Shown piece by piece: positions 1 through 51,942 of a stretch of 64,000 bases of DNA. The stretch covers positions 1,137,334-1,201,333 of the forward strand of contig MU004185.1 in the NCBI GenBank assembly GCA_010093605.1, given 5' to 3'. Numbering within the stretch: the first letter of the stretch is position 1; each line of letters opens with the position of its first letter. Source of the stretch: Lophium mytilinum (taxonomy: Eukaryota). A program made the position numbers and the translations under genes. The notes under the pieces are model-generated. The model ran no database searches. It had not been told where the DNA came from and worked only from the letters and a program-made list of their open reading frames with translations.

Positions 1-828
1 GAATCTCCCAAACCCTCACCAAACCGCTCGAGCAGCCCCGACAGCAGCGACAAGCGACGCAAAGTCCTGGGACCCGCACTACCACCAGCTCCTTTAGATG
101 AACGACCGCCAGGGAATCCATCGGCCTCAGATTCAGACGACAGTAGCAGCGACGACGATGACTTTGGTCCCGCGCCGCCTCCAGCCAACGGCGCAAATGT
201 ATGCAGCTCCAGCACTCTCAGCCTTTGGAGTGGCTCCCACTAATTATCTACGTAGACATCAAGCTATGAACCCTCTGAATCTAAATCAGCCTTCGACACC
301 GACCCCGCATATGCGCCCGCCGCACCCTCCTCCAAACCCCGCCGCGACGAATGGATGATGGTGCCCCCCAAAGCCGACGACCTCGCCGCGCGCATGGATC
401 CGAGTAAGCAGCGCGCACGCAAATTCAACAGCGGTAAAGGGGCACGCGCGCCCGGAGCTGCAGACGGCGACAACGCTATCTGGACAGAGACGCCGGAGCA
501 GAAGCGCAAGCGGCTCGCAGATGAAGTTATGGGCGTTGCGCCGGCAGGGAAGGCGAATGTGTCGGCGCGGCAGCAGGCTAGGGATCGAGAGGCGGAGGAG
601 ACGGCGAGGAGGGTGAGGGAGCACGATGAGCGGCATCGGGGGAAAAGTCTGTTTGAGCGGCATCAGGCTAGTACCACTAAGGAGAAGGAGGATGATCCGA
701 GTAAGAGGGCGTTTGATAGGGAAAAAGATGTCGCGGCGGGAGTAAGGCTAGGGACGAAGGAGAAGAAGGAGATGCTGAGCAAGGCGGCAGATTTTGGATC
801 GAGGTTCGAGAGGGGCAGTTTTCTGTAG
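1..828 (+). CDS. GPALPP-motif / DUF3752 family protein (5' end outside window)
   Basis: Frame 1 reads KRRKVLGPALPPAP...DDDDFGPAPPP. Intron 199-255 (GTATGC..CTAAT..TAG) joins it in frame to RDEWMMVPP...IWTETPEQKRKRL...DDPSKRAFDREKD...FGSRFERGSFL*, the typical DUF3752 C-terminus. Confidence 0.88.
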
Positions 829-1557
829 TGGCTTGTGAAAGTGGGAGGAGTGTCTTAAGGGAACTTGGTGATGCTTGGCACGCTGCACACGGCACCTATC
901 GTAAAACTAGCCCTAGAATCGAACTCTGAACATGTATATGAAGTTCGCACTGAGCCTTACTATACACTGTATGCATGTGAAAAATTTGCAGTATGGCCTC
1001 ATTCAATAGATGCATTTTTCGAATACTCGGTGGTTCACCGCAGGAACTACACGTGGAAACCCTCAGCTTTAAAATATCATGGAATCTACAAGTTGCTAGT
1101 GGCTATCTCAGTTGAATTGAAAACATGCCATGAGTAAAGACGATCAACGCCAAAGCGATTTAAAATGTTGGTAGCGATAGGTACTATACGTACGAGTGGA
1201 GTTGCGGAGCCCACTCCAGCACGAAATAAATTGGATTAAAGAAAGATTCTCCCCCCGACTCGATTCTGAGTTACTAGAATTGAGGAGTGACCTCTCCTGA
1301 ACAGCATGATGGCTCGTTATGTGGTTGCAAACGACGAATACCAAGCCATCCTTTGAAGTGTTGTTTCAGTGGGGCCGATTGTCCACCCTCTGGACCTATC
1401 AATTGGCCGAGACGCTTTGACACACACACCCATGGTACCCTTGTAATTTCACTCACTCCCGAAGGTCGGCTGACTGTTCTCTAGGGTTGGTTTTCGCTCT
1501 AGTTTGTCATGGGCTATATACCAACTATTTTTGCCAACTCTTCATCAATCACCAACA

Positions 1558-1688
1558 GGCGTGGTGGCGGAGTGGTTATCGCGCAAGCCTAGAAAGCTTG
1601 TTCCTTCGGGAGCGCAGGAAAGCGATTTGATTCCTAGCTTCAATACCATCAACTAACAGTGTTATAGGTTCGAGTCCTGCCCACGTCG
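1558..1688 (+). tRNA. tRNA-Ser(AGA) gene interrupted by a 50-nt non-canonical insert (1618-1667) in the T-stem
   Basis: Acceptor GGCGTGG/CCACGTC plus G discriminator; D arm GCG-GAGTGGTTAT-CGC; anticodon arm CAAGC-CTAGAAA-GCTTG; Ser-type variable arm TCC-TTCG-GGA. The full 5-bp T arm GCAGG-TTCGAGT-CCTGC forms only after removing 1618-1667. TATATA at 1515-1520; T6 run at about 1697-1702. Confidence 0.92.
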
Positions 1689-1696
1689 AAATTATC

Positions 1697-1702
1697 TTTT
1701 TG
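1697..1702 (+). terminator. RNA polymerase III T-run terminator of the tRNA-Ser gene
   Basis: TTTTTT beginning 9 nt after the discriminator base. Confidence 0.75.
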
Positions 1703-2053
1703 ATTTTCCACATATCTTTTTGCTCCCACGTTGCTCCGGACGGCCAGGACATCAGCAATACGTTTGAACAGTGACTGATAAGCGTGTGCATTCTTTTTGC
1801 CCTTGTGCAATGTGATAGCCGGGGTAATGTGACAACTTTTGCTCGGCTAGCAGCATATGCGCCTATCATCAGTGAATGACATCTACGTGACATCCGGGCA
1901 GGCGAACACGGCATGTCGATAATGTGATGTGATCTTTATGCAGGAAGATGACGGAAGTAACGATGTTCAACCTATAAATCAAGTTCTATGTTACCACAAG
2001 ACGGGACGCGGGGAAGTATATCACACGTTCCGAGATACGGGAAACTGCATCAT

Positions 2054-2360
2054 ATCGATATGATGCACCAATTATCGGCAGATCGAGAGTTTGTACATCG
2101 ATATGAGCGCACCAATGAAAACCCTGTACTTCAGAAATAGAATGGTCTTTTGCTATGTCACTGCTTGGTGTCCTCAGATACACGCCCAGAAATCCAGACC
2201 AGATGTCGGATTATTCGCGGTACTAATCAGCCCGACGATATGGGGTGACTGCATGGACATCATAGATCGGAACGCTAACCTTCCATTATGCCTCTCGTGC
2301 TATGTCACTGCTTAGTGTCTTCCAACACGATTTCAGATATCTGGACAGGATGTCAAGAAC
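2054..2360. repeat. Degenerate local direct repeats
   Basis: ATCGATATGA(T/GC)GCACCAAT at 2054 and 2097; TGCTATGTCACTGCTT(G/A)GTGTC at 2151 and 2298 (147-nt offset), with looser similarity continuing downstream. Confidence 0.7.
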
Positions 2361-2592
2361 GGTGCAGCGTGAATCGAACAAGGCAAAATAGCTCTGAATA
2401 AGATCTTTGACGATTCCTTTACATCAATAGGAGCGCTTCAGTTAGCTTCAGTTATCGTTGATTGCAAAGTTGTACCGAAAAGTCTCCTATGTTGCTTTGC
2501 CACTACTGAGAGTCCCCCAACACACTCCAAAAATCTAGCCACGATGTAAAAATAGTCCTCTCACAAATCAAGCCATCCGAAACCAAACCGCT

Positions 2593-3396
2593 GAGAACGT
2601 CCGGGGCGCTCCAAAGGACCACAGAAATCCACCGGATTCAACTCTCCATCATCTTAATCCCCAACCAATCACGCGCCGCACACCCACTCCTCACCAACCC
2701 CATCACCACATCCACATCCCCTTCTCCCAATCCCCCCCATCCCTAAACCCCACAGCGCCATCCCCGCCCTAGAACATTCCAAACCCCCAATCGGCGCTCG
2801 CCTCTCGCCAAAACCTCCCACCGCCGACCTTCCCAAACCACCACACCCACCGGCTCGGCTCCGAAACTCGGCTTCCAGCCAAAACCCAAATTCTCTAAGC
2901 TCAGAACGTCATCTCCGCCGAAAAAAGGTAATTACATATCTGGCGTCTGTCTTAGAACGACGTCGGTCGGTCGTCCAGCGCCACGGCAGCGGGACAGCAA
3001 GTTGCTGACGCGGGACGGCATGCCGCGCGCCACCCAGCGAATGGGATGCCGCGGAGCGCGAGCTCAGGGGGTTGTGGATGCCGCGTTCGACATTTCTCGA
3101 GTCTGAACCGTCTCAACAGTTTCGCCTGAGCGGGACGGATGGGGGGGTGGGGAATGTGGGTAAAGTGTGGATCATGGATTTGGGGGTGAGACACGCTGCG
3201 GGTTCCTGAGCTAGAGGCGTTGCTTTAGGAAATCACGGTGGGCGGAGGGAAGCGCGTGTCAGGCGCGTTTTGGGCGGTGTGGGTTGGTAGTCAAGGATGA
3301 GTATGGAGGCTATATAGCCAGTGACGAGTGCATATACGTGCCGAGGAGTGGTGAGAGACGGTGGGTTTGGGTGGAACCAATGCCCGGTGCGTTCTC
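2593..3396. ncRNA. Candidate long structured non-coding RNA (nested imperfect fold-back, identity unknown)
   Basis: More than ten nested complementary segment pairs, e.g. GAGAACG 2593/CGTTCTC 3390, ACGCGCC 2671/GGCGCGT 3262, CCCCCCCATCC 2732/GGATGGGGGGG 3137, AACCCCC 2782/GGGGGTT 3067. No credible ORF. Confidence 0.45.
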
Positions 3397-6300
3397 CCCA
3401 TGTATGGGGATTCATTGATACACAAGAGCTAGTTCTATCGATGGTGTATCGCTACTGGGAACTCGCATGGCCAATACCCTCAGCTGAAGCTACAACTGCC
3501 CTCCCCGAAAGACGGGATTGGTGAGTACGAATGCGGCATCTTCAATAAGTGAAGAAACGAGGCCTATTTAGAGAGATGTGACCGGTGACAGATCCTGGTT
3601 GTGGTGGCCGCAGGGCAGCTCAAATTATGCAACGCACGTGAAATAAAAAGATAGTGAACACCTTACTACGACGTGATTAAGGTTGCGGTGTTCTAGAGGG
3701 TTAAAGTTTTCCGGACCGTGGCTCACATGCAAATTGCAAATCGGCGAATGGATCCGCGCACCCGAAGCGTAACTAGCCTAGGTACTGCGAGTTCACACCT
3801 CTCGGAGATACTCCTAGCCAAGCCAAGCTCAAGATCGAAGTTGACTTTAGCAAAGAAGTTCCGCAGCTAATGCGCGCATGCACCCGGTACTCAATCCGTA
3901 GGCAGATCCGGGGTAGAAGCAGGCGGGGTAGACATGACGGAGAAGGGGTGGTCAACGACGTATGGCCGGTCGACGCACTGAATGTCCTTGTGATTTTGCG
4001 ATGGGTCTACAAAATGCGTGGCGTTTACACATGACAGAGACATGGGACGACTGAGATGCAGGGGAAGGCGAAAATGCGAAAAACTTACAACGACCTAAGA
4101 GATTCCTCAAATGCATTGCCTTTGTAAGTGGTTTCTTCAGAGGTCTCCGAGACTCTGGGGAAACACAAGGTTACTATGAAGTAGGACTGGATCTTAGAAT
4201 CGGATCGGAGACTGTGCACGAATCGTGTAGGAGATAGAAGCATCCTCGTTTGAGATAGTACTTTAGATAGCTGTTAAAATAAAAAATTCGCACCAACTTA
4301 CGGCTTGCGTTCACAGTGAAAATCCTCGGATACAGAGTTCAATAGTCCGTTCCCGGTCGTTGTCAGCAAATGTAATTTCGTGAACATGGGATGCATTTAG
4401 TCGTCTTTTCTTCCCGAAACTGCAAGGAGGCCGTGGCTCGGACAGGTTTTTGGAAAGGCACTTTCTCCGGTCAGATCATTTGGTGGCGTGCAATCGCTGT
4501 CTAGCTTTGCATTTCGAAGGAGTTTCGAAGCACTCCCTTGCCGTCATTCTCACCTCCCTGGTAGAGTAGTACCGGGCATGTGGGAGGCGATGCAACAGCG
4601 CACAGCAATTGCGACTGTGTGAGGAACCGAACGTGCTGAATCTCTGCGGCACGGAAGGTCGTGCACGGCGTGCAAGTCCAGGATGGCGACCAGGATGGCG
4701 AGCTTGGGTACATAATGTTCGTCTCTCACGGGAATGATGGTTGGAGTAGTCGGTCGCTAGGCATGCGACGGGCTTCTACACACCGAAGTGGCCAAGCTGA
4801 GTAGAAGCTGACTTGGAGGAGCACAGCGCATGTTAGTCTCAGAGTCTTCAGTTAGTTCAGCTGAGGATTTGAGCAAGGAGTGGATGACGATGGATAAGTT
4901 TCTTAAGGTGCCATATTGATGAGATGCAGCTGCAGTGTCAACCTGCAGGCCGTTCGCGAGGCTAACGGGTGACGCCAGGACGTGTTGGACCAACTCCGTG
5001 CCTTACGATCGGTAGAGAGGTGGACGTGTGTTTTGCTAGGGAGGGGAAACGGTTCGCTCGTTTGTGGTGAAACGTCGCACTTGTTCAACGGCCTGCACTG
5101 ACCCATGCACCCGGGTCTTGACACACCTTCGAGAAGACCCAAGAGCCGCGACCTAGACTCGGGATAGGACGGCTGGTGCCCAGCGTGCAGGATCAAGGCG
5201 GCAAGGATAAAGTTCGTATTCGAGGAGTGGGGAGCACTACTTCTTGAAACCTCCTAGGTTGATGCTGTTGATAGTGGACGTGGAGGTTGGCGATCCGGCC
5301 GGAGTTGCGAAAGTATTTCAGAAGTCCGCGAATCCTGCCGCCACCTGGGAAGTGCTTCATGATGCGCTTCATATTGAAAGCGAAGCTACGTGGGAAGACT
5401 CGGCATGAGTTCTGAGAATGGCAGCTCGTCCTCGGTAATGTGATGCTGAAGTTGAGATGACGGATGTCGATGCCGATGGCACATCCGGCAGCGAGGAAAC
5501 AGTATAACACGAGTCCGGAAGCGGTTCAAGGTCCGGCTGGGGTGGCCAGCTCGGGCTAGATACGCAGTGGGAGCGGGATGCCATGCACGGAAGATCGGGC
5601 TGACAACCTTCTGCAGGAACCTCTCCTCTGCATCGCAAGACGACGCGGGTGGTGGTGTAGAGCGGGTCAGGGGCACAGGGGCTACGCGGGTTTTCGACTT
5701 TGCCACGAACGGCAACCTTGCAACCGGCCTTGGATTGGGGGGCCTAAAAACGGGGGAGAGTGGTGGTCGAAAAGATTTGGCATCACTCTGGCATCATCGA
5801 CAAGCTCGCACGCGAGGCACGACGAGGTGGTTCGATTGTTGGAGAAGCAGAGGAGTAGCAAGATCATTCGACGGCCAGTCTGACAAAGCGGAGTTTGCAA
5901 TGAGGCGTGTAGCCAATTCGAAGGGTCATCAACAGAAAGCACGTCTCGACGCGTTGATAGGCCGACTTGACGCCGCCGCAAGGAGGGACGGGTAAGGGTC
6001 GGGGCGTGAAGAAGAACGAGCCGATGGGGCGCTGTAATGGCGGCATCACCTTGACCCAGCTCGGTATGGTCCGTCGGGGCATTTCTGCAAGGCATCCAGG
6101 TCGGAGGAGCCCGCCCGTTGAGGACGACCCCGCTGCTGTACCTGTGGCCTACTGGGGACACGGCGGTGGATCAGAATCACGGCGAGTCAGGTCATCGTCC
6201 CCGAATGCCCGGCTGAAGGATGGCTGGGCCTGGAGTATGGTTGAAGCCTGAAAGACGACTGAAAGGAAACTCGATATGCACGACGCTGGGCCTTGACTGG

Positions 6301-13469: not shown

Positions 13470-16400
13470 CTATCGCCGCGTTCTCACCCGGAACAGTTCT
13501 GCGATTCGTTCACCACATCCTGCGTTTTCAGCCGCGATCTCAGCTATGGTGTCTGTAACCCGAAATTTATCATCGCACTCTTGTAAAAGCAAGTCGATGA
13601 TTTCGTCGCCGCTATTTCTATTCCTAGCCGCTGCTTCTATAAGTCTCTCATTTATCTGTATCTCGTCGCTCTGACCTCGCTCCCGGAGAAGGACGGCTAT
13701 GATGTGCGCACCACTTCCTTCGTTCCCAGCAGCTTTTCTCATTATCTTCTCGGTGATCCTAAATTCGTCACCACGCTCCTCAAGGAGCATTTTGATGATT
13801 TCGTCCCCCAATTGCTCATTTGCAGCGGCAGCTTCTAAGACACGGGTAGTAACTGGACATGGATCTGCACGAAGAAGGCGTTCTAGGCTTTCTCTCTGGT
13901 CGCTGTGCTCGCCTGCGGCAAATTCTTCCAACAATCTCTGGGTGACTTCAATCTCTTCTTTTTTCTCCTGGAGAAGTTCCTTCAATATAAAGGGCCAAGC
14001 CCTTGCAATTAGCTCGATAGCCCTTTCAGTGAGTTGAATGTCGTCGATTCGTGAGCGAACGAACTCAAGCAGAATTTCCCAACCCGCGTGTGCTCTTCCG
14101 CTATCGAAGTCGTCTCTTGTACAAGCTTCTATTGCACGTCCGGTGAGCTGGACCCGATATTTGCACTTCTGCAGAAGCGTCATTACGACACTTCTATTGT
14201 TTTTTATAGCGACTTCTAGCACTTTGAGTGTCATCCGTATCTCGGTGTCCACTTTATCAACAAGTCGCACGATATCGTCGCCACATTCTGAGTTCCCCGC
14301 TGCTGCCTCCAGTACTCTTTCGGTGATTGGAATGTTCTGCTTCGACAATCGGAGAATGATCTCGGTAATCTCTCCGCCTTTCTCTTTGTTCTGGCATGCT
14401 GCCTCGAGCACCCTTTCAGAGATCTTGATATCATCACCGTATTCCCGAAGAATATATTGCATCATCTTGTCTCCAACTTCAAAATTACCCGCTGCGGCCT
14501 CCAGAACTCTCTCTGTTATTTCGGCCTCGTCGGATCGCGCCTTAAAAAGCATGTCTAAAACTTTTACACCACTACGGGTGTTCCGGGCAGCTGCTTCCAT
14601 AATTCGTTCGGTGATGTAGAAATCGTCCCCTCGCTCATTTAGAAACCATCGTAGGATCTCTGGTCCTTTTCTCGCGTTTCCAACAACGGACTCTAAGACT
14701 CTCTCGGTGATTCGGACTTTGTTATGATCCCGGCTGAGTATTTGTTCCAATATCTCTTCAACAATCCACTCTCCGCTGACGACTCCTTCGACAACGCGCT
14801 CACTTATCTGCATACCTCGGTCTGATTCCAAAAGAAGCCAGTGCCAAAGACGTCGCGACTTTCGACAAGCGTATATCAGGAGTCTTTCGGTGACTTGAAT
14901 CTCTTTCTCGCATTGAGCCAGCAGCAAGACAAGGATTTTACCGCCCGCCACTTCGTTGCTCGTGGCTGCTTCTATTATATCCTCTATAATGCGTAACTCG
15001 GTCCCGCGCTTTCGGAGAAAAAGCTCCATGAGTTCATACCCCTGCTCCTTGTCTCTAGCGGCTGATTCCATCATCTCCGAGGTGATTCGAATGTTACTCT
15101 TTTTTTGCAATATCATTTGAACAGTATTGAAACCGTATCGCTCTACAATCGCCTCGAAGGCCCCTTCACCGAATTGGACCGCGTCCTCCCACTTCTGAAG
15201 AAGCTGCTCTAGTAAGATTTCCAGCCACACCCTTTTATAGTCACCTCGATCTGTGGTCATTACTACACGCTTAGTTACCATCACGCTTTTCCATTTCTGC
15301 GCAAGAAGTATGTCCATAATCTCCTGGCGCTGGGAAGCTAAGATCGGCATCGCTGCGATCAGCATCGCCTCTCTTAGATTCTCGTCCTCGGGGATCTTCT
15401 GGAGAAATAGGGCTATCATATCCGTATCGCGAAACTTAGCGAAAGCCAGTGCTGCTTCTCGGCTTACACGGAGCCCCTGGCCCTCTTCTAGCAGCATCTT
15501 GAGTCTCGTCTCGTAGCCATACCTGCTGTAGCGAATTGTGAAATAATCACAGGCCTCATCGACCAGCTTTGCCGTAATCTGTATGTCGTGCGTCCCTGCC
15601 TGAAGCAAGATCGCGAGCACTTCATCACCTCTGTATTCGTTCAGGGCAGCGTTTTCCACCATTTTCGTCGTAATGCGCAAATCAGCCCCAGCGTGGCTCA
15701 GGAGTAGTTTCAGCATTCCAATATCTCCATCTTCATGTCCACAGGCTACGATCTCCAGCATCCTTTCCGTGACACGTACCTCGTCTGGACGCTCTCGGAG
15801 CAAGAGTTCGACGATATCCAACCCAAACCTCTCATTGCCCACGGCGGCTAGGAGCACTCTTTCGGTAATTTTAATCTCGTTCCCACGGTCGCGAAGTAGC
15901 GTCCCTACCATTTTCATCCCCGCATCCGGATTGGCAGCCGCAGCCTCTACCATACTCATGGGGATATCGAACCGTTCCGTCGGCGCTGCGTTCGACAGCC
16001 AATACTCCAGCAAATTAGCATCTTCCAGCCCTGCGAGGGCGCTCAGCGCCTGCGTCGTAAACCTTGCGTTATCACCAAATCGGCTGATGATATTCCTAAT
16101 GGTCTGCTTCATCACATTGCCTTTATCCGCGTCTTCCTGATTTCCGCTCATCCACCCAGAAGAGTAGTAGTACGGATTTCTAGCCGACTTATCCTCTTTT
16201 GTTGCCTCCACCATGCTCTCAGTAACTCGGATTTCCTTCCCTTCATTCGCTCGAAGCAGCATCTCTACGACCGCCTTGCCAGACTTCTCGTTATTGCAAG
16301 CGGCTATCAGCACTTTAGGCGTAATGAGTAGCTCGCCTCGTCTCTCCCGGAACAGCAGCTCGAAGATCTCTCCCGCGGCGCCCGAATTTTCTGCTGCCGC

Positions 16401-17150
16401 TTCCAACACGCCCTCTGTGATGCGCACATCGTCCCCGTGGCCCTGCCTCTTCAGCAGCAGGCCCAAGAGCTCTGCTCCGCTCTCGTGGTTCTGAACGGCT
16501 GCTATCATCCACCCCTCCGTAAGACGAACCGCATTACGATAGTCGTCGCGGTCCTGCAAAACCGCCTCCATCACCTCCAGCCCCTTCCCCGACCCACTCA
16601 CCACCTGCTGCAGCTTGAACACCGGAATCGCAGCATGCCCCCAGAAACCCCGCACTTGCAAAATCCGCCTCATACCACGGTACGATCGGTATTCGTTCAG
16701 TATCGCTAGGTCTGGGTTCAGGATCGCGAGGAGTGCTTCGTCCTCAACAACCCATGTCCCCGGCGCGAGTTTGGGCTGCCTGGTTGCATGGCGCAGTATC
16801 ATACGCACTAGCTCTACCCCACACCACTTGTTCTGCTTTGCTGCAAGCTCTGTTGCTTCTGCGAAGCTGATTTGGTCGGCGCGCCAGAGGACTAGGGCGC
16901 GGTTCTCTTGGTTGATGTTGGTGTCCGAGGATGAGTCTGCGGAGTCGTCGGAGTCTGATGCAATGCTGTAGGTGTCGCTTGCGTTGATACTGGAGGGAGC
17001 GGACCGGTGGGTTTGTCCACGGGTTGTCGGTGGTAGGATTGCGGTTGCGTAGGACGTGGATGTTGTGGTTGGGGCGGGGGACTGGGAGGACGGGGGTGTG
17101 GTTTTCTTGTTTCGGAGACGGATTTTGAGGAAGCGGGTGAGGGGATCCAT
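13470..17150 (-). CDS. 1226-aa intronless protein made of ~37-aa ankyrin-like helical repeats (DUF7104-like), no NACHT/HET domain
   Basis: About 20 or more degenerate repeats of consensus ITERVLEAAAxNxxxGxEIxxLLLxERGDE(I/V)x after a Ser/Thr/Pro-rich N-terminus; no P-loop seen. Confidence 0.85.
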   Translation of the reverse strand: MDPLTRFLKIRLRNKKTTPPSSQSPAPTTTSTSYATAILPPTTRGQTHRSAPSSINASDTYSIASDSDDSADSSSDTNINQENRALVLWRADQISFAEATELAAKQNKWCGVELVRMILRHATRQPKLAPGTWVVEDEALLAILNPDLAILNEYRSYRGMRRILQVRGFWGHAAIPVFKLQQVVSGSGKGLEVMEAVLQDRDDYRNAVRLTEGWMIAAVQNHESGAELLGLLLKRQGHGDDVRITEGVLEAAAENSGAAGEIFELLFRERRGELLITPKVLIAACNNEKSGKAVVEMLLRANEGKEIRVTESMVEATKEDKSARNPYYYSSGWMSGNQEDADKGNVMKQTIRNIISRFGDNARFTTQALSALAGLEDANLLEYWLSNAAPTERFDIPMSMVEAAAANPDAGMKMVGTLLRDRGNEIKITERVLLAAVGNERFGLDIVELLLRERPDEVRVTERMLEIVACGHEDGDIGMLKLLLSHAGADLRITTKMVENAALNEYRGDEVLAILLQAGTHDIQITAKLVDEACDYFTIRYSRYGYETRLKMLLEEGQGLRVSREAALAFAKFRDTDMIALFLQKIPEDENLREAMLIAAMPILASQRQEIMDILLAQKWKSVMVTKRVVMTTDRGDYKRVWLEILLEQLLQKWEDAVQFGEGAFEAIVERYGFNTVQMILQKKSNIRITSEMMESAARDKEQGYELMELFLRKRGTELRIIEDIIEAATSNEVAGGKILVLLLAQCEKEIQVTERLLIYACRKSRRLWHWLLLESDRGMQISERVVEGVVSGEWIVEEILEQILSRDHNKVRITERVLESVVGNARKGPEILRWFLNERGDDFYITERIMEAAARNTRSGVKVLDMLFKARSDEAEITERVLEAAAGNFEVGDKMMQYILREYGDDIKISERVLEAACQNKEKGGEITEIILRLSKQNIPITERVLEAAAGNSECGDDIVRLVDKVDTEIRMTLKVLEVAIKNNRSVVMTLLQKCKYRVQLTGRAIEACTRDDFDSGRAHAGWEILLEFVRSRIDDIQLTERAIELIARAWPFILKELLQEKKEEIEVTQRLLEEFAAGEHSDQRESLERLLRADPCPVTTRVLEAAAANEQLGDEIIKMLLEERGDEFRITEKIMRKAAGNEGSGAHIIAVLLRERGQSDEIQINERLIEAAARNRNSGDEIIDLLLQECDDKFRVTDTIAEIAAENAGCGERIAELFRVRTRR

Positions 17151-24244: not shown

Positions 24245-27200
24245 ATGTCAGACATCAACACGCAACAAAACCGCAGGAAAAATCCCCAGGGTCAGAAAGG
24301 CAACAAACAAAGCAGCAAGAACCGCAAGAAGTTAAGCGATGAAGAGTCAAAGAAGGCAAGAGAGGTAGAGTTGGAAGCAAAGATCAAGGAAATTTGGAAA
24401 GATGTGAATGAAGATGTCGAATGGCTTTCTCAGCCTCCTTCCGATAGTAAAAGCAAGAAAAGATGGAGTTTCACGCGCATCTTCCATGGCGGAGGTCCAG
24501 GCAATGGAAAAGATGATGCAAAGTCACCGCCCGAAAGCGAAAACAACGAGCACCAGGACGACATAAAAATAACAACTGTGAAGATTCTCGGGATTTTGCA
24601 CGAAGCTAAGCCGGAACCGTCCAAGGATACTAGCGATAAATACGAGAAGTTGAAGAAGACCGTGGCCAATACCATCAAGTGTATCAACGTGCTGGGTGAG
24701 CGTGTAGCCGGGGCGGCCTCACTGGTATGCGTCTGCTCAAATGTATCCGGTGTCGCGAACATGAGCGGGGATGGGTGTTTGTTCATGCTAACTCGAAGCC
24801 AGACGTTCGCACCAGCACCCTCATGTTTCAATGCAATAAGCTTCTTCCTTCAATTCTGGATCAACTACGTCGAAATGTTCGATAAGATCGACCAACTTCT
24901 CTCAACCTGCAACGACTTCATCGGCCGCCTCCACATCTACAAAATGGACGATTCTGGAGAAAAGGTTATCGAGCTCCAATACATCGCGGCGCAACTTCTG
25001 CGCAGCACCGTTAAGGTTTTCCGATTCAGTATCTCGATTTCTTCTTCGAAAAAGGACATCATGAAAAAGCTTGCGAAGCAAAGTTTTTTGGGCGAAAGTG
25101 ACATTGATGAGTTAATGGGTGGTATGGGGAAGTTGGTGGAGCAGGAGAATAACCTTCTGACGGCCTTGTCGTATGGTAACGTCCGAAACATCCAGCAGAT
25201 ACTAGCGCAGCAACAGACCACAGCAGACGCGAAGGGGTGGCGTATAGCCATCGCAAAAGCTTTGGGGTTCGGAGATGAAGAACCCAAGCGCGCATGGAAA
25301 AATAGACTCGAAGAGATCTCAGGGTTGCTAATCCCCGAGACCGGGAACTGGGTGGAGAACTTGGAGGAGTTCGAAAACTGGGTCGCGCTGGATGATGATA
25401 ATGCTGCTAGGAAAGAGAAGGGCTCTGAGCATACGCGGCCTATACTGATTGTTGAGGGCGCGGAAAACACTGGGAAGACGTATTTGATGGCGAACATCGC
25501 GAGACATCTCGGCCGCATCAGGCCAAATCACTCAGTTGCGTATTATTTCCATGAGGGCGGTTCCGATCGGCACATGGACCGCTCCCGCCTCCTGTCTTTA
25601 GTGTCTAGGAGCTTGCTTTGGCAGTGTTCTACTTTCTCCGGCCTCTTGATCAAGTCAATGGCTGAAAGATGCCAGAAAATGGGGTACAACCCCAACGTCT
25701 ACGACATATGGAGACAGCTCTTCCTTCAGAACGAGGAAATAAGGAAGGTCAAGCAGCCGTTCTACATCCTGATCGATGGGTTGGAGGGTATGTTGTTGGA
25801 AGATATCATATCTTTTATAAATCAGCTCGTGGACAGAGGAGAGCAAACCTTTCGTGTCCTAGTGAGCAGAAGGAACTCGAGCGTGCAGGAGCACCTGAAA
25901 AAGGGATCGTTTGGACGCATCCGCCTCCGTGACGAGAACACAGTCAACAATCGACTCGACATCCAAACGTACATCCAGCACAGTCTGAGGAACATGTCTG
26001 CATTCGATGAAACTCATCATCCCAAAGCCGAGGAGTACAGAAATAAGATCACAACGATACTCAAGGAGAAGACGGAGGGCAATTTCGCATGGATGACGGT
26101 TATCCTAGACAAACTCCGTTCAAAGCATCATCTGGCAGATATCGACATGATTCTAGAGAATGTGAACGAGCCAAAAGAAAAGCAAGCCAAAGACGAAATT
26201 GAGAGACTAAACCGAGAGCTTACGTCCGAGGAAATCAAGGAAATCAACGAGGTTATTCTTTGGGTATTGACAGCGCAAGTCACACCATCTGTTGATGATA
26301 TGGCGGCAGTGCTCTCTCTTGGACCGCATACTGACTCTTTGATGCCGCTACGTCGTCGGTTGAATCCTCTTCTCAATGTCAATGAGTCGGGCAAAATTCA
26401 TTTCAAGCTCAGCGAGTTCAAGGACCAGATCTTGAAGAACCAAACACTGGTGTTGGAACTTAGATCGGATGAGACATCCGTTACTTTGCTCCCCCCAAAA
26501 GCAGAGATGGAAGTGGTCCACCGCTTCTTGATACACGTGTTCCCGCGAAGGGAAGATTATGAAAAGGAGGCATTGGAGCGCATCCTGTGGGGCGAGCCTT
26601 CGAAGTCGTTGAAACCTGCTATCTGTTATGATAATCAGAATGCTCATATCAAGATGGCCTTGACATACCTGAAGGTACTTACGAATGGGAGCAATGAACA
26701 GACTAACGCACTTCGTTTCGACGCCGGGAGATATTTGCTGTATCACATCAAGAAGGCGAACCAGAAGACGGCAGATAAAGATCTGAAAGCAAAGATCGGC
26801 CTGCTTCTGGTCAAGCTGTTCACGGAAGGCGATTGCATCGACACATTATTTTGGACGAGAGCAGAACACATGAGCCATAACTCCTGGGAAGAGAGTGAGG
26901 GAGCGTGGCTGAAGGAAAATCGTGAGCGCTGGCTATATACGTCAACGGGGGTGATCGAGATGGCGAAGTGGTTTTCAGATGAGGAAGTAACAGGCGATAT
27001 TGTGGGCCCAGGCAAAGATTTAGTGAAGTCTATAACCGACAAGAAAAATATTGCTGGTCGCCATGAAATCCTTTTACGGGCAGTAGCTGAGCGGTTGGCT
27101 ACGCATTTGTTGCTGGAGAACATATATACTCGCCGGGAACAACTCACAGCGGTCTATTTCCTCAATGGGTATGTCACGAGGGTATGTACATCCGATGTTC

Positions 27201-29365
27201 ATGAATGACATGCCTTGCTGACCACTACAGATTGGCAATCAAAAGAACATGACACCATGCCAAAAAGACCGCGATCGACTCCCATGGAAAGAGTTCTGTC
27301 GTATCAAAGACTGGGCTACTAGACTGCACGGATTCCACGATTCTTGGTTGTGGAAGATTCAGGTTGCCAGAACTATATTCACCGTGTGCGATGGATACGA
27401 CAATAAAGCAAACAAGGCAGCAGAAGGTCTGCTTCACGAAGTACAGGAGCTAGACGGAGAGATTTGGGAGGGGAGTATTTTAGCCTGTCAGACCATTGCT
27501 GAACACCTAGTGACAGAGAATTCCTATGCGAAGGCCCAGAAAATCTTAGAAAAAGCAACGGAGAGATTTTACAAAGACCAAGGTGGGGTGCAGGTCTCAA
27601 AGTCTGACTCAATGCTTGTTGCTATTGCTTTCCTCGATTTGGGAGACATATATTGGAAACTGGAGCAATATGATCGAGCGGTGGCAACGAATCTCCAAAG
27701 TTTGAAGTACGACACCACTCGCTATGCTCGGTATTTCGATATACTTCGCGAGTACAGTAAGAAGGAGGAGACCTGGCCCAAAACCGTCGAATTTCTCGAT
27801 GAACTCACAGTGGTAAAAGAGTTCGACAAACTTTACTTGAATCGATTGGTATACGACTTCCTGGCTAAAGACGATTTCCGAGAATTCATGGCTAAAGCCA
27901 AAGAGCACAAGGACTGGAAGAAAGTGGTCGACAAGACTTTTACACAGGCAATTGAAGTAGCGAATGGAAGCCCTGCCGAGCTGTTTCACATCAGGAACGT
28001 GTACGGCCGCATTCTACACGAGTGCGCAGGCGCGAGCAGAGAGGAAGAAGCTGTCCAGCAATGGGAGAAAGCGCTGGAGTCCGGGAAGCCGCTAGCAGTT
28101 ATCGGGAGTGATATTCAGTGGTCCCATATCGCCGACATCATTGAGCCACTTGCAAAGATCTATTTGAGGCGTGCAGAGGACGCGCTCGCCAAGGCAAGGT
28201 CTGTGAACATCGATGATTACAGACCTGCTGAGTTCGTAAAAGAAATCTTTGACATGGCGAGCCACGATTTTGACTTGCTCAAGAAACTGGAGCAAAAGAC
28301 AGATATTTGGGTGAACACAGTCGTGTATTGTTGTTTGGCTCGCTATTACAAGGTTTCCAAGGACGAAACAAAAGCGAAGAAAGCAGTCGCGAAGGTGATC
28401 GCAGCCTCGATAGCTGTACTGTCAGACTCTGACGAGTCAAACGACTGGTTTGCGTTCATTCAACTAGGAAAGGTCTTCAACGCGCTTCAGGACGCAGAAA
28501 ACTCTGAGGAGGCGTGGGAAAGATTGGACGTCTTTGGGAAGTCGCCTTCGGATCTGTGGCCCCCATTTTATTGCGCTGGATGCAATACGAAGGTCCCTCT
28601 TGCTGAAGGCGTCTGGGTATGTACCGAGTGCTTTGGACCCAAGTATTTCGACGCGGAGTGTTACGGCAAGAGAGAACTTAATGGATGTTCTACAACGCAC
28701 AAGGGTGTTAATTTCAATCCTGAAATCCAGGACTCTGACATTGGCACATCGATGGGCAATTTGGATAGAAAGAATGATCTAAACCGGTGGAAGATACAGC
28801 TTCAACTAGAGTATCTTGAAGGCGAAGATATTGGAGATGCTGCGAAACTTGCTCCCATCGATCTGCTACCTACGCGGATGTGGAAACCGAAAATGACGCT
28901 CAAACCAAGCATTACTCGCGCCGATTTGTCTCAGATGTTGAGAAGAGAAGAAGAGCTTCATGCAGCGTGGTTAGTAGGCCGTCCGGTTGATTGATGGCCA
29001 TAAGACTGGATTAGACTGACTAGACTAAGATAAGAATTGACTTGAATCGGCCGGATGAAGAGACGCAGGCCCAAAAGGCGGTGGACAAGGTTATTGTGAT
29101 GATAAATGACCAAAATGATGCCACTGATAACAACAAGGACCGTGGCAATGAAGATAGTGCCGTAGAGCAGCACGTTGAAGAGCTCGATGAGAATGAGGAA
29201 CGCGAGAATGAGGGCGAAACCGTACGACCACGCGTTGAAGGAGACGGCGAGGACGAGGACTCCCGTGAATTGGATACTTACCAAAAAGACGGAGCTGTAC
29301 AACAGCGTACTGACGCATATCAGGAGCTTGTGGATAAATACTGCTTTTACGGGGGCAGGGTTTGA
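24245..29365 (+). CDS. Fungal NLR-like STAND protein: Goodbye-like N-terminus, NACHT, TPR region, ZZ-type zinc finger, acidic tail
   Basis: AASL|FAPAPSCFNAISF segment typical of Goodbye-type N-termini; Walker A GAENTGKT; Walker B YILIDGLE; GNFAW; TPR-like LGDIYWKLEQYDRAV; CAGC..WVCTEC..DAEC..C..H. Introns about 24724-24801, about 27182-27230 and probably 28974-29029 (otherwise the stop is at 28994). Confidence 0.85.
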
Positions 29366-33832: not shown

Positions 33833-36800
33833 CTAATCGCTATCCTCGAAGAAGTTCATAATCGCCTTCACCCCCAACGGCCCCAGCCCGTGCGGTGGAT
33901 AACACAGATAACTCGGATCCTCTACCGCACCTAACTTCTCCCTAAACTCCGTCTTCTGCGTGAGCTTCAGCTCCGAGGCGATGGCGTGGTACGCCCGACT
34001 CAGCACCTTAACCCTCGTGCCCTTCAGATTATGCCCCGGCGAGAAGCGCGCCGACGCGCCGCCGCCAAACGTGACCGACGTTGCGCCCGCCGCCGCAACG
34101 ACTTTGAGCGCATGCGTGACAATCTGCTCGATAGCGCCCGACGGCGAACCGGGGAAGTCCATCGAGTACTTGACCTGCCAGCCATGGTCCGGGCTGAGCT
34201 GGGCCATAACGACGAGCGCGCAGATGGTGCCATCCTCGGTCGTCGAGTAGTGGTACTGGCGATGCTCCATGTCCTGCCACGGGTGGATGTCCGTGAGATG
34301 GACCTGGCGGCCCTTGCGATTCGCGAGCCAGTCCTTGACCCGCGCGTCGATTTTGTCGCGGACCTCCTGTGGTACGGGCTCGCCGAGCATGAACTCGTGG
34401 ATCTTGACGCCTTCTTTCTCGGCGTGGCGGATCTTGCGCTGGACATCTTTGTCGTGGGCGGCTGGGTTGGCGACGGGGTCGACGCGCTGCTCGGCGACGA
34501 CGGAAAAGGTGCGCCAGTTGAGCTTTTCGGCGAGCACTTCTTCCATTTCCTGGCCGACGAGGAGCCAGAGGGGCTTGAGCTTGCGCTCTTTGGTGATGTA
34601 GCGGAGGTAGCCGTTGATAGTCTTGAGGTACTGCTGGGTGTGGCAGAGGGGGTTGCCAACGGTGATGGCGAAGCCGTCTTGCGGGACGAAGCCGACGGCG
34701 GCACCGGTGAACGGATCACGCCACACTTCGGTGCGCTCTTCGAGCCAGGAGGTGTTGGATGCATCACCGTAGTTTGCGATGAGCTTCTCGAGGGGCTGGA
34801 AGTCCAGACCAGCGGCTGCTCGGTCTTGGCCTTCCCATGGAGGGTGCATGGTGCTAGCTTCCGGATGCCTAAGCTGCTTGATGACCGGTTTGGCGGGCAA
34901 GCTCTTGGGATCTCGAGGGAACATGGAAGCGTGACGGATGTTTCCGAGGTTGAGAGCAAGCATTAGAATACGTTCGAGACCGATACCTCCGCCACCGTGG
35001 GGAGGAGCTCCCCATTGGAATCCTTGGATATAGTCTTCCATCGACTTGGGGTCTACCTTGAGCCTCTCCATCTTCTCTAGCAGCATGGCGGCGTCGTGGA
35101 TACGCTGTCCACCGCTAAGAATTTCTTGTCCGCGGAGGAAGATATCGAAGGAGTTGGTGACTTCGGGGTTGTTCGGGTCTGGCATGGCGTAAAAAGGACG
35201 AGCTGAGACAGGAAACTTATCTAGCACGTAGTAATCTGTGTTGTACTTGGCCTTGATCACCCTGCCGAGCTGAACTTCGTCTCTCGTACCAAGATCCTCA
35301 TTCAGCGGTAGTGGTTTGCCGTGTTCGTCTGTCCACCCAGAATCGTTCAACAGCTGAACAGCTTCGGAGAACGGAAGGACAAGTGTCTCCTCTAGCCAAA
35401 CGAGATCCTCGTGGGGGAACTGCTTTTTAACAATCTCAATTTCATGCTTGTAGCGGTCGTAGATGCCCTGGAAGATCGCCTTAAACGTGCGGTCCAGCAC
35501 ACGCAAGACTTCGTAATAATGCTCGTCGATCGCCATTTCAATATCCAGACCAGTGTATTCAGTCAAATGCCGGTATGTGTTGCTGTTCTCGGCACGGAAG
35601 ACAGGGCCAACCTCGTAGACCCTCCCAAAATCTGCCGATATACACATCTGCTTTGCCAGTTGAGGACTCTGTGCGAGGAAAGCACCACGGTTGAAGTATT
35701 CCACCTTGAAGACACTAGCACCGGACTCTGTAGCTCCACCTTGCAGCTTGGGGCTGTGAATCTCGATGAATCCCTCGGTGTCGAGGTGAGAGCGGAAGAG
35801 GTTGCAAATGCCTGACTGGATACGGAAGATGCCTTGGGAGGCAGTCGTTCGCAAGTCGATGACACGGCTGTTGAGACGGGTTCGATCTGTTATGTGGACG
35901 CGGTGGTGTCCCTCCCTGTGATGTTCCGTCTCTTCAGCCTCTTCTTCAATATTCTCCTCAGCTTGTGTGACTTCTGCCTCGTAAACAGTGAACGCCATGT
36001 GTTCCGTCACGGCCGCTTCGACGTGCAGTCCATGCACTGATATCTCGATGTCGTGTATTGAGGCCCCCTTGACCTCTCCTTCCTTTGCCTTGGGCTCTTG
36101 TACCACGCCCTTCACCAACACAACGGTCTCTGGATCTAGATGTTCAGCCCAGTATAGCATGTAACTCGAGATAGCCCCGTGTTCCATCAGCACGCCCTGT
36201 ATAGTCGCCGTCTGCTGTCGGAAGAGCAAGAAGACAAACTTGGCGCTCATCTTCCTGAGATGGTGCAACCGCGCGCGAAAGGTGACCTCACGGCCAATAT
36301 CCTTCGCACTCAGGGTGAGCAGCTGGACGCGCTCTTCGTGCTTCCACTCGCCGGCGTAGCCATTGACGGGGAGCACGCCGTAGCGGCTCTTCTGGTCCGG
36401 CGTGAGTTCGCGCTCGGCCTCGACCTCCATCAACTTGCGCCGCGCTTTCAGCTCCTCCTCTTTCTCTACACTCTCCTTCTTGCGTATCTCTTCGGCAACC
36501 TGCTTCTCGTGCTTCTTGAGCTGGTTGCGGGACATGGGCTCGCCATCTCGGTTGAGGGGCAGCTCGCTGGTGGAGGAGGACGAGGATTCGACTTCGCCGA
36601 GGCCGAGCTTCTGCCTCACGGCGCGGATTGGGCTGTGGGAGATGCCGCTGGAACGGTGGCCGCCAAAGGTACCGCTGCGGCGGACGGGGCTGTCGGTCTT
36701 GTCGAAGGTGCCACTGTGCTTGGGACTCTCAATGCCGCTGAGGTCTTTCGTGGTCGACTTACGGTGGCCGAATGTGCCGCTTCGGCGGGGAATGTCCTCG

Positions 36801-36964
36801 CTGTTGCGGTGGAAGATGCCCGAGGTGCGCGGTGAGGCAGTGCCGGGCGAGGCGGCGCCATTCACAACGGCAGACTTGGGGCTGGTGATGCCACTCTCGT
36901 CGTCGCTCTGGGGGTTGCTGTGCGAGACCTTCAGCTTCTCGAGGGCCTTTTTTAGCGAGGACAT
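33833..36964 (-). CDS. erdS: Ergosteryl-3beta-O-L-aspartate synthase: aspartyl-tRNA synthetase fused to a DUF2156 aminoacyl-tRNA transferase domain
   Basis: OB fold (VTFRARLHHLRKMSAKFVFLLFRQ), AspRS motifs GGATESGASVF, AFLAQSPQL, FRAENSNT, GAPPHGGGGIGLER, MFPRDP, then a ~350-aa C-terminal domain (LIANYGDASNTSW..VGNPLC..VTFG..FREKLGA) of DUF2156 type; intronless. Confidence 0.93.
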   Translation of the reverse strand: MSSLKKALEKLKVSHSNPQSDDESGITSPKSAVVNGAASPGTASPRTSGIFHRNSEDIPRRSGTFGHRKSTTKDLSGIESPKHSGTFDKTDSPVRRSGTFGGHRSSGISHSPIRAVRQKLGLGEVESSSSSTSELPLNRDGEPMSRNQLKKHEKQVAEEIRKKESVEKEEELKARRKLMEVEAERELTPDQKSRYGVLPVNGYAGEWKHEERVQLLTLSAKDIGREVTFRARLHHLRKMSAKFVFLLFRQQTATIQGVLMEHGAISSYMLYWAEHLDPETVVLVKGVVQEPKAKEGEVKGASIHDIEISVHGLHVEAAVTEHMAFTVYEAEVTQAEENIEEEAEETEHHREGHHRVHITDRTRLNSRVIDLRTTASQGIFRIQSGICNLFRSHLDTEGFIEIHSPKLQGGATESGASVFKVEYFNRGAFLAQSPQLAKQMCISADFGRVYEVGPVFRAENSNTYRHLTEYTGLDIEMAIDEHYYEVLRVLDRTFKAIFQGIYDRYKHEIEIVKKQFPHEDLVWLEETLVLPFSEAVQLLNDSGWTDEHGKPLPLNEDLGTRDEVQLGRVIKAKYNTDYYVLDKFPVSARPFYAMPDPNNPEVTNSFDIFLRGQEILSGGQRIHDAAMLLEKMERLKVDPKSMEDYIQGFQWGAPPHGGGGIGLERILMLALNLGNIRHASMFPRDPKSLPAKPVIKQLRHPEASTMHPPWEGQDRAAAGLDFQPLEKLIANYGDASNTSWLEERTEVWRDPFTGAAVGFVPQDGFAITVGNPLCHTQQYLKTINGYLRYITKERKLKPLWLLVGQEMEEVLAEKLNWRTFSVVAEQRVDPVANPAAHDKDVQRKIRHAEKEGVKIHEFMLGEPVPQEVRDKIDARVKDWLANRKGRQVHLTDIHPWQDMEHRQYHYSTTEDGTICALVVMAQLSPDHGWQVKYSMDFPGSPSGAIEQIVTHALKVVAAAGATSVTFGGGASARFSPGHNLKGTRVKVLSRAYHAIASELKLTQKTEFREKLGAVEDPSYLCYPPHGLGPLGVKAIMNFFEDSD

Positions 36965-48918: not shown

Positions 48919-51900
48919 ATGACGACGCCAATCGCCGAACTTCCTGAGCCCCAGTACAACATGCCGACCGTCCAGGACCAGCGTTCATCGGACGAGGATG
49001 GCACCGTGGTGGGAGAGGAATCCTTGCGCGAGGACAATACGACTACCGGCAGGGGACGAAGCAACAGCCGCTTGACTCTCAACACAGAAGGCCATCTGCG
49101 GCCAATGGACTCCTTGGTATCTCCGTCAGCGTCGCGCGAGCAGGCTCACCGACTAGACGACGACTTGGCCATGCTACAGGTGGAGCGGCAAGTGTCCCAG
49201 CAGCAGAGCGAGGAGCTTGGCCGAAATGACTCCCAGACGCGTTCCATGCATCGCTCAAGGTCGCGTCGGGAGGACCCAATTGACGACTTCGATGCCGCTA
49301 CCAACCCTCTACACGAGAAGACCGCTATATACAAACCGCCTGAGAACCCCTCTACCACCTTTGCTAAGTTCATCAAGAAAGTCCACCACTCCAGCTTCTT
49401 GGTCCGCTACTTCGTCTACATTACGCCCGTTGTCCTGATAATCCTGATTCCCTTGCTACTGGGTGCTCTTATATTCAAGAAAGCTTCGGTTGGCGGTGTT
49501 TTCCTGGTGTGGTTCTGTATCTGGCTGGAAATAGTCTGGCTCACCCTCTGGGCTGGCCGAGTAAGTATCACAGAGCACTACTGTTGAACGTAACTAATGT
49601 TGCTATAGATCCTAGCGAAATGTCTACCTTGGCCAATCGGATTAGTTTCCAGTCTCTTTACTAACAACAGCAAGAAGTGGAGGGATATGGGAAAGCAGCT
49701 CGAAGTGCCCGCCACGCTGTTCTTCTGGTGGCTTGCTATCGAGATTTCCTTCTTACCGACTATGAAGAACCACCACTCCAACGGCAACAAGGCAACAAAG
49801 GGCTGGGAGAAGACGATGAATAAAGTGCTCATCTCAATCTTCGTGGCCATGATTCTCAACTTTGTGGAGAAGATTATCATCCAGCTCATCGCCATCAGCT
49901 TCCATCTGCGGACATACTCAGATCGAATCGAGCTCAACAAGTTTCAAATTGGCAGCTTGGCAAAGCTCTACAAATTCTCAAAGGACAAGATTGCCATGGA
50001 AGACTCGGAATTTGAGCAAAAGTCGGGCACTGCTTCTGGCGCACGCACACCGGGCCAACTTGTCAAGGAAGCTCAGAAGAACACAAAGGAAGCATTCAGC
50101 AAGTTCGGAGATGTTGCTGGTAAGATCGCCGGTGATTTTACCGGTCGCCAGATAGCGCAAAGCAACCATCCCAACCAGGTTGTGTTGACCCTCATGTCCA
50201 CCACTCCTGGAAGCCAAATATTAGCCCGCCGAATGTACCGCACTTTTGCACGGGAAGACACCGAAACTGTTCACTCAGAAGATTTAAAGAGCGCCTTCGA
50301 AAGCGAGGAGGAAGCCGATGCGGCGTTCTCCATGTTTGACAAGGACATGAACGGAGATATCTCCATGGAAGAGCTAGAGGCCGTGTGCGTAGAAATTGGC
50401 CGAGAACGCAAGTCGATCACCGCGTCTCTCAAGGATTTGGACTCCGTTGTCAGCAAGTTGGACGACGTCTTCATGTTTGTGGTCTTCGTCATCACGATTC
50501 TGGTGTTCATATCGCTCATCTCGACTTCGGCTGCTGGTGTCCTTACGTCTGCCGGTTCCACAGTTCTGGCTCTCTCGTGGCTCTTTTCAGCAACCGCCCA
50601 GGAGTTCCTTCAGTCCGTCATCTTCGTCTTTGTCAAGCATCCATTCGATGTTGGTGACCGCGTTGGCATCTATGGAAACACGGGTGCCCTTGGTCGCGGT
50701 GATGACTACTTCGTCAAAGAAATTGCTCTTCTCTATACCGAGTTTAAAAAGATGGAAGGTCACGTTGTCCAGGCTCCTAACAGCTACCTCAACACCCTTT
50801 TCATCCTCAATCAACGCCGGTCCGGAGGTCTTGCCGAAGCTGTTCCTGTCATCATCAAATTCGGCACCACCCTCGAACAGATCGAGAGCCTCCGTTCACG
50901 GTTACTTGCTTTCGTCATAGAGGAGAAACGAGAATACCAGAACAAAATTCTTACGGAATTGCGCGAGGTCACTGAAGCCCACTCCATCACCTTGAACGTG
51001 GTGTTCTTCTACAAATCCAATTGGCAAAACGAATTGCTACGTCTTCAACGTCGGAACAAGTTCATCTGCGCCTTGATGGTGACGATGCAGGAACTTGGGA
51101 TCGAAGGTCCTCGCATGCGGTTCCCTGGCCAAAAGGAGTCCTTCCCCGTATATATGCAGAACCTTCCTCATACTGCGACTCCTGGTACTGGCCACAATGG
51201 AAATCCTGACAACCCTAACGGCTTCCGTAACAACGAGTCTCAAGATGCACCGTTCGTTCCCCCGATGGATAACAACTCCCAGTCAGGACATAGCCCTGCT
51301 CCAGCTCGATACGGTTCTATCCTTCGTAATGGCGGCACCCGTCCTCGCGGTGAATCCCTTGCTGCCATGGGCCGACGAGTTGATTTTTCCCTCGGTATGA
51401 AGGACATTTCGTCTGGTGATATGGCTGGCGACCTCTTTGAAGATCGTGATTCTAGAGACCAATCCCGTCTCGCTGCACTCCGACTGAACAGTCCTTCACC
51501 TCGCGTTTCGCAAGAGACTCGCTCGCGGTCGTCGCGCGACACAGAGCGCACCACCAGTCACACCACTGCCATAGATGATTTCGCTTTGAAAGGAAGGCTC
51601 AACCGCATCAACACCGATAGCTCTGCTGCTCGCGACCGAAGCAACCACCGCAATCGCTTCTTCGGACGAGGCAGAAAATCTGAGGATGAGGCCCGTATGA
51701 TGGAAACAGGCATGGCCGAAATTCCTGAGGATGGCAGGCAAACAGCCTCCAGCGACCGCCATCGCCTCGACCCGCGTACGGGCTTGGTCAGCCCAGTAGC
51801 CATCCGCCTACAATCGGACGAGAACCACTCGCAGTACCACGCTTCAGGTGGTCTTCCACCGTCCTCCCACTCTCGTGACCTCGATCTCCATATGCCTCCA

Positions 51901-51942
51901 CGGAGCCAGACGGATACCTTCGAGATGCGACGACTCCACTAA
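48919..51942 (+). CDS. MscS-like mechanosensitive ion channel with EF-hand (fission-yeast Msy1/Msy2-like)
   Basis: [17 protein letters not shown]-hand [48 protein letters not shown]; intron 49561-49608. Confidence 0.93.

Follow-up and report, generated by a model that had tools for sequence, protein, structure and literature searches.

Positions 1558–1688 on the plus strand of the window, by which we mean the whole stretch of 64,000 nucleotides analysed here, hold a tRNA-Ser(AGA) gene that is interrupted in its T-stem by a 50-nt insert. The insert is probably of the spliceosomal-intron type, whether it is spliced out of RNA or varies between strains in DNA. Our leading explanation, to which we give a rough probability of 0.45, is that it is a U2-type intron with GA-AG ends, located between T-stem positions 52 and 53 of a nuclear tRNA-Ser(AGA), and that it is excised from transcripts by the spliceosome. 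The original prediction had set such a spliceosome-matured tRNA beside an insertion with a decayed donor; these are still the two best readings, and the intron anatomy behind them stands, the first being somewhat the likelier.

A serine tRNA gene split between positions 52 and 53

The tRNA family of Rfam (RF00005) matches 1558–1688 on the plus strand over model positions 1–71 of 71, with 41.3 bits, the gathering score being 29, and an E-value of 2.5e-05 for the whole window; this is the sole RNA-family match in the 64 kb. The alignment gathers about 60 surplus bases into one insertion ahead of the T-stem and flags one T-stem pair as non-standard. ARAGORN finds no tRNA gene in the 64-kb window when run without its intron option, and calls tRNA-Ser(aga) at 1558–1688 when run with it. 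Lowering the ARAGORN threshold yields 17 further intron-bearing ‘tRNAs’, with introns of 65–1902 nt or odd anticodons, which we took as noise, Rfam seeing one tRNA only.

The AGG repeat on either side of the insert allows 50 nt to be excised in four registers, from 1616–1665 to 1619–1668. When carried out in silico, all four excisions give a single, identical 81-nt product, which ARAGORN calls as tRNA-Ser(aga) without the intron option and in which every stem is paired: the acceptor stem has 7 bp including one G-T, the T-stem has 5 perfect base pairs (GCAGG with CCTGC), and the variable arm is of the long, Ser type. G+C content is 63% in the spliced tRNA versus 36% in the insert. The proposal that removal of 1618–1667 restores an 81-nt cloverleaf with intact stems is thus borne out by the excision and the ARAGORN call, and the 3-nt ambiguity of the border attributed to the AGG repeat appears here as four equivalent registers with one product. 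The parts of the gene are as follows.

1558–1617, plus strand: tRNA exon 1, comprising the 5′ strand of the acceptor stem, the D arm, the anticodon arm (AGA), the variable arm and T-stem bases 49–52 (Rfam, ARAGORN)
Between 1615 and 1618, plus strand: border of exon 1 and insert, ambiguous with AGG at both flanks
1618–1667, plus strand: 50-nt insert between T-stem positions 52 and 53, starting GAAAGC and ending TATAG, 36% G+C
1652–1657, plus strand: branch-point-like ACTAAC, followed by the acceptor TAG/G (the slash marks the exon border, here and below); its presumed branch A, 1656, lies 11 nt ahead of the final base of the insert
1668–1688, plus strand: tRNA exon 2, comprising G53, the T loop, the 3′ strand of the T-stem, the 3′ strand of the acceptor stem and the discriminator G (Rfam, ARAGORN)

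A script-based motif search placed promoter and terminator elements in and around the gene.

1515–1520, plus strand: TATATA upstream element, 38–43 nt ahead of the mature 5′ end
1565–1575, plus strand: A box, TGGCGGAGTGG
1667–1677, plus strand: B box, GGTTCGAGTCC, straddling the border of insert and exon, with the insert ending on its first G
1697–1721, plus strand: cluster of T runs, presumed Pol III terminators (T5 at 1697–1701, T4 at 1704–1707 and T5 at 1717–1721)

The TATA element, the A box and an intact B box had all been predicted and were located at these positions; the T6 terminator predicted alongside them was not, the first run being a T5 that is followed by a T4 and a second T5. 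The A box fits the consensus TRGCNNAGTGG, and the TATATA element is a predicted promoter element for Pol III or Pol II. The spacing between the A and B boxes is 91 nt with the insert and 41 nt without it. Because both boxes are intact and the insert contains no T run of terminator length, the longest being 3, transcription through the insert would appear possible.

Intron-like signals in the insert

The donor context, CAG/GAAAGC, fits the splice-site consensus in the exonic CAG, in the G at +1 and in the AAG at +3 to +5, and departs from it at +2, which is A and not T. A GT or GC start is absent: the sole register with an AG acceptor begins GA (1618–1619), and the remaining three give AG..AT, GG..TA and AA..GG ends. 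The A at +2 is not an assembly error, because the DNA runs from which the window probably derives (X1 and X2, below) agree with the window there and show no other letters. On the minus strand GT-AG ends occur in none of the four registers, and an antisense spliced RNA was ruled out since that strand carries no splice signals in any of them. The ACTAAC, the TAG acceptor, the length of 50 nt, the CAG/G context and the GAAAGC start, each of them named in the original prediction, are present in the sequence as described there, and the position of ACTAAC was confirmed by script.

In its length, G+C content and lack of structure the insert fits short fungal introns; no stable fold was found for it (minimum free energy (MFE) −2.3 kcal/mol, z 0.77). 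To gauge chance, we scanned the 127,900 50-mers of the window on both strands for a GNAAG start, a CTRAY with its branch A 6–30 nt from the end, and a YAG end, and exactly one of them, the insert itself, carries this set. The marginal frequencies among the same 50-mers are 5.0e-3 for the GNAAG start and 4.3e-4 for YAG together with CTAAC, and the probability of a chance origin of the motif set stays below about 1e-3 after allowing for four registers and a tenfold post hoc margin. The distance of 11 nt from branch to end falls at the mode (11–12 nt) of the 72 candidates in the window that have the form GTRNGY..CTRAY..YAG and a length of 40–100 nt. The insert is flanked by AGG as a direct repeat (1616–1618 and 1666–1668). 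Further copies of it do not occur in the 64-kb window at up to 3 mismatches, and the window holds no source for a local duplication, the best other blastn-short match being 12 nt.

A joined form in a public sequencing run

A search of public sequencing runs with window positions 1–4000 returned three matching runs, here called X1, X2 and X3, none of them on record as RNA. X1 and X2 are DNA from one sample of one organism, contain all of the sampled words and are probably where the window comes from, whereas X3 belongs to a separate study, is labelled with a different organism and contains a fraction of 0.70 of the words; its ‘RNA?’ label is a guess. The contigs of all three were aligned to window positions 1200–2100. 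X1 and X2 each have one contig across this region, in which the insert is covered and which shows 0 differences and 0 joints. A second contig of X1 and X2, 6326 nt long, matches the 5′ half of the tRNA (1565–1609) with 8 differences in 45 nt and has unrelated flanks; a further tRNA gene of Ser type, at another place in the genome, presumably accounts for it.

In X3, one contig of 157 nt, at depth 4.4 and with 0 other letters, aligns to 1582–1615 and 1666–1788. It joins 1615 to 1666 and so skips exactly 50 nt, and because three letters at the joint are ambiguous, this skip equals removal of 1618–1667. The shorter side of the joint measures 34 nt. On the longer side the contig runs to 1788, 100 nt past the 3′ end of the tRNA and through the three T runs, and the junction that had been predicted for the spliced form, GCAG/GTTCGA, is found in continuity with the locus-specific 3′ flank. 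This junction, together with the perfect stems obtained on excision, also agrees with the placement of the insert at 52/53 and not at 37/38. Only the joined form is seen in X3, and no contig with the insert. From a start just ahead of the joint, a word of 31 letters already extends 7 nt into the locus-specific trailer, and a contig assembled in part from another Ser gene is therefore unlikely. Template switching by reverse transcriptase across the 3-nt repeat, an artefact source considered from PMC7072748, is unlikely too, a joined-only contig being hard to explain in that way.

Over 546 aligned bases, intergenic DNA included, X3 shows 0 differences from the window, so that it comes from the same strain or a very close one. 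Its coverage of 1200–2100 has gaps at 1309–1581, at 1789–1820 and in the interior of the insert, which by themselves prove nothing. The mean depths of its neighbouring contigs are 177, 4.4 and 4.1, over DNA that is unbroken in X1 and X2. The contig at depth 177 is 1006 nt long; its end, at 1308, lies past the stop at 828 of a plus-strand gene and follows an AATAAA (1225) by about 80 nt; a further low-depth contig lies at 1821–2115. Given these uneven depths and a contig end near AATAAA, which looks like the 3′ end of an mRNA and not like genomic coverage, we infer that X3 behaves like RNA, although contig depth is a poor measure.

Proposed removal by the spliceosome

Whether X3 speaks to splicing depends on its DNA: if the X3 genome is without the insert, the joined contig is uninformative. 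The odds are about even that the strain of X3 does carry the insert and that the joined contig is a spliced transcript, the spliceosome accounting for the rough 0.45 given above and SEN, the tRNA splicing endonuclease, for a small share. On the best reading, the joined molecule is a spliced, 3′-unprocessed transcript from a run that is guessed to be RNA. The fuller proposal, in which maturation of a nuclear tRNA depends on the spliceosome and the GA-AG intron in the T-stem is removed in the nucleus before 3′-end processing, is more tentative and falls somewhat short of an even chance.

In such a pathway, the gene, with its intact A and B boxes, would be transcribed through the insert, and U1 would pair with CAG/GAAAGC, which agrees with the consensus at 7 of 9 positions. 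The branch would form at A1656 within ACTAAC, and ligation of the exons after TAG would recreate G52–G53 and the T-stem. RNase P, RNase Z and CCA addition would then yield a normal 81-nt tRNA. In yeasts, SEN is a cytoplasmic activity acting on pre-tRNA whose ends are already mature; the joined molecule retains a long trailer, and nuclear splicing ahead of end processing therefore fits better than the cytoplasmic SEN pathway. As far as contigs, which give no strand, can show, the molecule may have come from Pol III reading through or from Pol II starting near the TATA element.

Splicing is favoured by the complete match of X3 over 546 bases, by an anatomy that function would explain, and by the mutated donor, which is not expected of a young insertion. 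The donor also weighs against it, being GA: a U-to-A change at donor +2 stalls the second splicing step in yeast, and that a tRNA should be efficiently spliced at GA-AG ends is improbable a priori. Further points against are that X3 has no entry as RNA and that its organism label differs, that the basis is one contig of depth 4.4 from one run, which is not a mature tRNA, and that this contig crosses three T runs, an oddity in a product of Pol III.

Alternative explanations

The alternative that survives best is a polymorphism for intron presence and absence, in which a spliceosomal intron landed recently in the tRNA gene and the DNA of X3 is without it. The intron would be introner-like, or would have been transposed by reverse splicing or DNA repair; in the sequenced strain it would be unspliced or poorly spliced, given the GA donor, and the tRNA gene would be dead but young, its loss being tolerated thanks to other Ser(AGA) copies. 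We consider this a real but lesser possibility, well below even odds; the strain of X3 being without the insert in its DNA, mostly as such a transposed intron, has a little under an even chance. The anatomy of the insert would then be explained by its origin and not by its present function, and the undecayed tRNA body is what a young insertion would show. X3 is not recorded as RNA, has the joined form only and differs in its organism label, but its sequence, intergenic DNA included, matches at 546 of 546 bases and marks it as the same or a very close strain, and a strain-private insertion together with a mutation of the key donor base would be two rare events in a very short time. Conspecific polymorphism of this kind has been reported in the class Dothideomycetes, and the AGG at both sides fits the 3–8-nt direct repeats around introner elements, both as described in part of PMC5647799; an intron in a CAG/G site, however, produces AG/G...AG/G automatically, so that the repeat is no proof of target-site duplication, and the 64-kb window contains no second copy of the insert, its best match elsewhere covering 12 nt. 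For an insertion in the T arm, a reviewer following passages of PMC4090602 would by default assume a pseudogene.

A non-canonical tRNA intron that is cut by the SEN endonuclease and joined by a Trl1-type ligase is improbable. A joined form does exist in X3, and T-arm introns are known from archaea (at 53/54, 56/57 and 59/60), a red alga and nucleomorphs (PMC4090602, in part). We looked for a bulge-helix-bulge of canonical geometry, with two 3-nt bulges cut after the second base and separated by 4 bp, and found none around the insert: whichever of the four registers is taken, no more than 2 of 4 pairs form in the central helix and no more than 3 of 4 in the outer helices. The free fold shows none either: the precursor gains no stability over shuffled sequences in its MFE fold (z −0.70), which buries the 3′ junction in a helix. 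The endonuclease reading thus fails its defining test and is not supported by the fold. In addition, the insert lies at 52/53 and not at the 37/38 expected of a eukaryotic tRNA intron cut in ruler mode, the splice-signal anatomy (1 in 127,900) would be a coincidence, and the joined molecule retains its 3′ trailer.

Chance insertion of unrelated DNA, such as repair filler, would have made an ordinary tRNA pseudogene here, X3 then coming from a strain that does not have it. Parts of PMC4090602 treat such genes in this way by default, and the motifs were chosen after the fact by a reader seeking them; nonetheless the motif set occurs in 1 of 127,900 window 50-mers, below about 1e-3 after margins, and no donor DNA for the insert was found in the window, and we regard chance insertion, too, as improbable. 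Least probable, and rejected, is an intron at the canonical position, as in the drawing given by ARAGORN with its intron option, which cuts 41 nt (1595–1635) after position 37 and leaves 1641–1663 as a long variable region, and in the similar Rfam parse, which takes the extra bases as a variable-region insertion before the T-stem: in this model the anticodon stem has 4 bp, 23 nt of variable region stay unpaired and the T-stem contains a mismatch, where the 50-nt removal gives perfect stems, and the X3 junction is 1615/1666, not 1594/1636.

Comparison with known introns

The U6 snRNA introns of fission yeast and other fungi resemble the insert in combining internal Pol III boxes with an mRNA-type intron. 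U6 introns, as far as is known, have normal donors, whereas the insert has GA. U6 also sits where the spliceosome has its active site, which provides a rationale for reverse splicing that a tRNA is without, and its splicing was shown experimentally, against one joined contig for the tRNA-Ser insert. In Schizosaccharomyces, the U6 intron contains a B-box match, according to a title cited in PMC5855946, while in the tRNA-Ser gene the B box begins on the intron's last base.

Besides the Pol III gene U6, spliceosomal introns occur in U1, U2 and U5 snRNA and in rRNA genes (PMC5855946, in part), and fungal U3 snoRNA genes carry them as well (PMC5832005, in part). The U6 and rRNA cases in the former source agree with the earlier statement that such introns occur in other non-Pol II RNAs of fungi. 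The introns in U1, U2 and U5 of Rhodotorula hasegawae, in ascomycete rRNA and in fungal U3 are, like the insert, short U2-type introns in structured RNAs; most of their host genes are Pol II or Pol I genes, and tRNA is absent from the intron lists in the portions of these two sources available to us (PMC5855946, PMC5832005).

Non-canonical tRNA introns of Crenarchaeota, Cyanidioschyzon merolae and the nucleomorphs of cryptophytes and chlorarachniophytes share with the insert a place in the T arm and a cloverleaf that is restored on removal; they rely, however, on bulge-helix-bulge or relaxed forms of it and an endonuclease (PMC4090602, in part), where the insert has the signals of a branch point and an acceptor. 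The accessible part of that source makes no mention of a fungal non-canonical intron in the T arm, and states that eukaryotic insertions in the T arm or D arm of tRNA genes outside nucleomorphs and Cyanidioschyzon are usually deemed pseudogenes (PMC4090602).

Dothideomycetes show intron presence/absence polymorphism and transposing introns with flanking repeats of 3–8 nt (PMC5647799, in part). The insert lies in a fungus of this class and is like these introner-like elements in being intron-sized, in its splice signals, in its short direct repeat (3 nt here) and perhaps in varying between strains. Introners, however, form many near-identical copies in unrelated genes, whereas the insert has no second copy in 64 kb, a tRNA as host and a GA donor.

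Introns with GA-AG ends are rare outside two animal species, according to sections of PMC7072748. Those of human FGFR, Eurytemora affinis and Oikopleura dioica resemble CAG/GAAAG in the A at +2, in the AG upstream of it and in the A downstream (PMC7072748, in part), and lie in protein-coding genes transcribed by Pol II rather than in a tRNA gene. According to the same source, the FGFR donor needs a canonical site that lies 6 nt upstream (PMC7072748, in part); there is none here, the nearest upstream GT being at 1600.

In the full-text literature, from which subscription journals were mostly outside our scope, we came across no description of a tRNA gene with a spliceosomal intron. The two splicing systems are set against each other in a 2023 review on tRNA biology, which, in the portion available, leaves an overlap between them unmentioned (PMC10275265). 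tRNAscan-SE 2.0 seeks non-canonical introns in its archaeal mode only (PMC8450103, in part), so that fungal genes of this kind would be missed or scored as odd in annotations. A metagenome scan for Ser-type T arms split by an insert of 30–60 nt, run with a loose pattern on a mostly bacterial collection, gave at least 120 loci and no split Ser tRNA among the matches listed; 54 of the listed loci have an ordinary, uninterrupted tRNA over the T arm, and after in-silico excision two have ARAGORN calls across the joint (Phe of 91 nt and Pro of 85 nt), both bacterial-looking. The result carries no information on fungi.

Neighbouring features of the window

The plus-strand gene upstream of the tRNA (1–1308) has an intron of typical local form at about 199–255 (57 nt, GTATGC...CTAAT...TAG) and its stop at 826–828; the end at 1308 of the X3 contig of depth 177 suggests a 3′ UTR of about 480 nt. 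Downstream of the tRNA, no open reading frame in the roughly 4.5 kb of 1700–6300 is tied to a protein family, the family scan having covered large reading frames elsewhere, and a proline-rich, C-skewed stretch lies at 2500–3000.

Farther along, an open reading frame of 1226 codons (13470–17150, minus strand) encodes seven DUF7104 repeats and an ankyrin repeat. A fungal protein of STAND/NLR type, with a Goodbye N-terminal domain and an NPHP3_N NTPase, is encoded at 24245–27208 (plus strand); 40 nt after it begins a 581-aa reading frame (27249–28994, plus strand) with a weak TPR_12 match, at 21.3 bits against a Pfam cut-off of 30.1, and a single gene, divided by an intron or a frameshift, probably underlies both. 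At 33833–36964 (minus strand), a reading frame of 1043 aa encodes a class II AspRS (tRNA-synt_2 with an OB anticodon-binding fold) fused to LPG_synthase_C. Some relatives of this fusion are named ergosteryl-3beta-O-L-aspartate synthase; its closest named relatives, in Pleosporales (Dothideomycetes), are 72–75% identical and its best overall match 85%. The STAND/Goodbye, ankyrin/DUF7104 and AspRS–LPG-synthase domains mark the host as a filamentous ascomycete, and the relatives of the fusion protein mark it as a member of Pleosporales. Finally, a 751-aa reading frame at 49687–51942 (plus strand) combines a mechanosensitive channel domain of MscS type with EF-hand calcium-binding motifs.

Implications

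The introns of tRNAs and those of mRNAs are the textbook pair of separate splicing systems. If the insert is removed by the spliceosome, this gene would provide a first link between the mRNA splicing machinery and the biogenesis of a tRNA, and would show that spliceosomal introns are able to colonise Pol III tRNA genes and to persist in them. It would also present a natural and efficient GA donor in a fungus, together with a B box that is completed by the last base of an intron, and so a compact natural substrate for studying how GA donors are used. If instead the insert is polymorphic between strains, the locus would be a case of intron gain caught in the act outside protein-coding genes, and would bear on how introns spread, whether by reverse splicing into an abundant RNA or by insertion into DNA at CAG/G.
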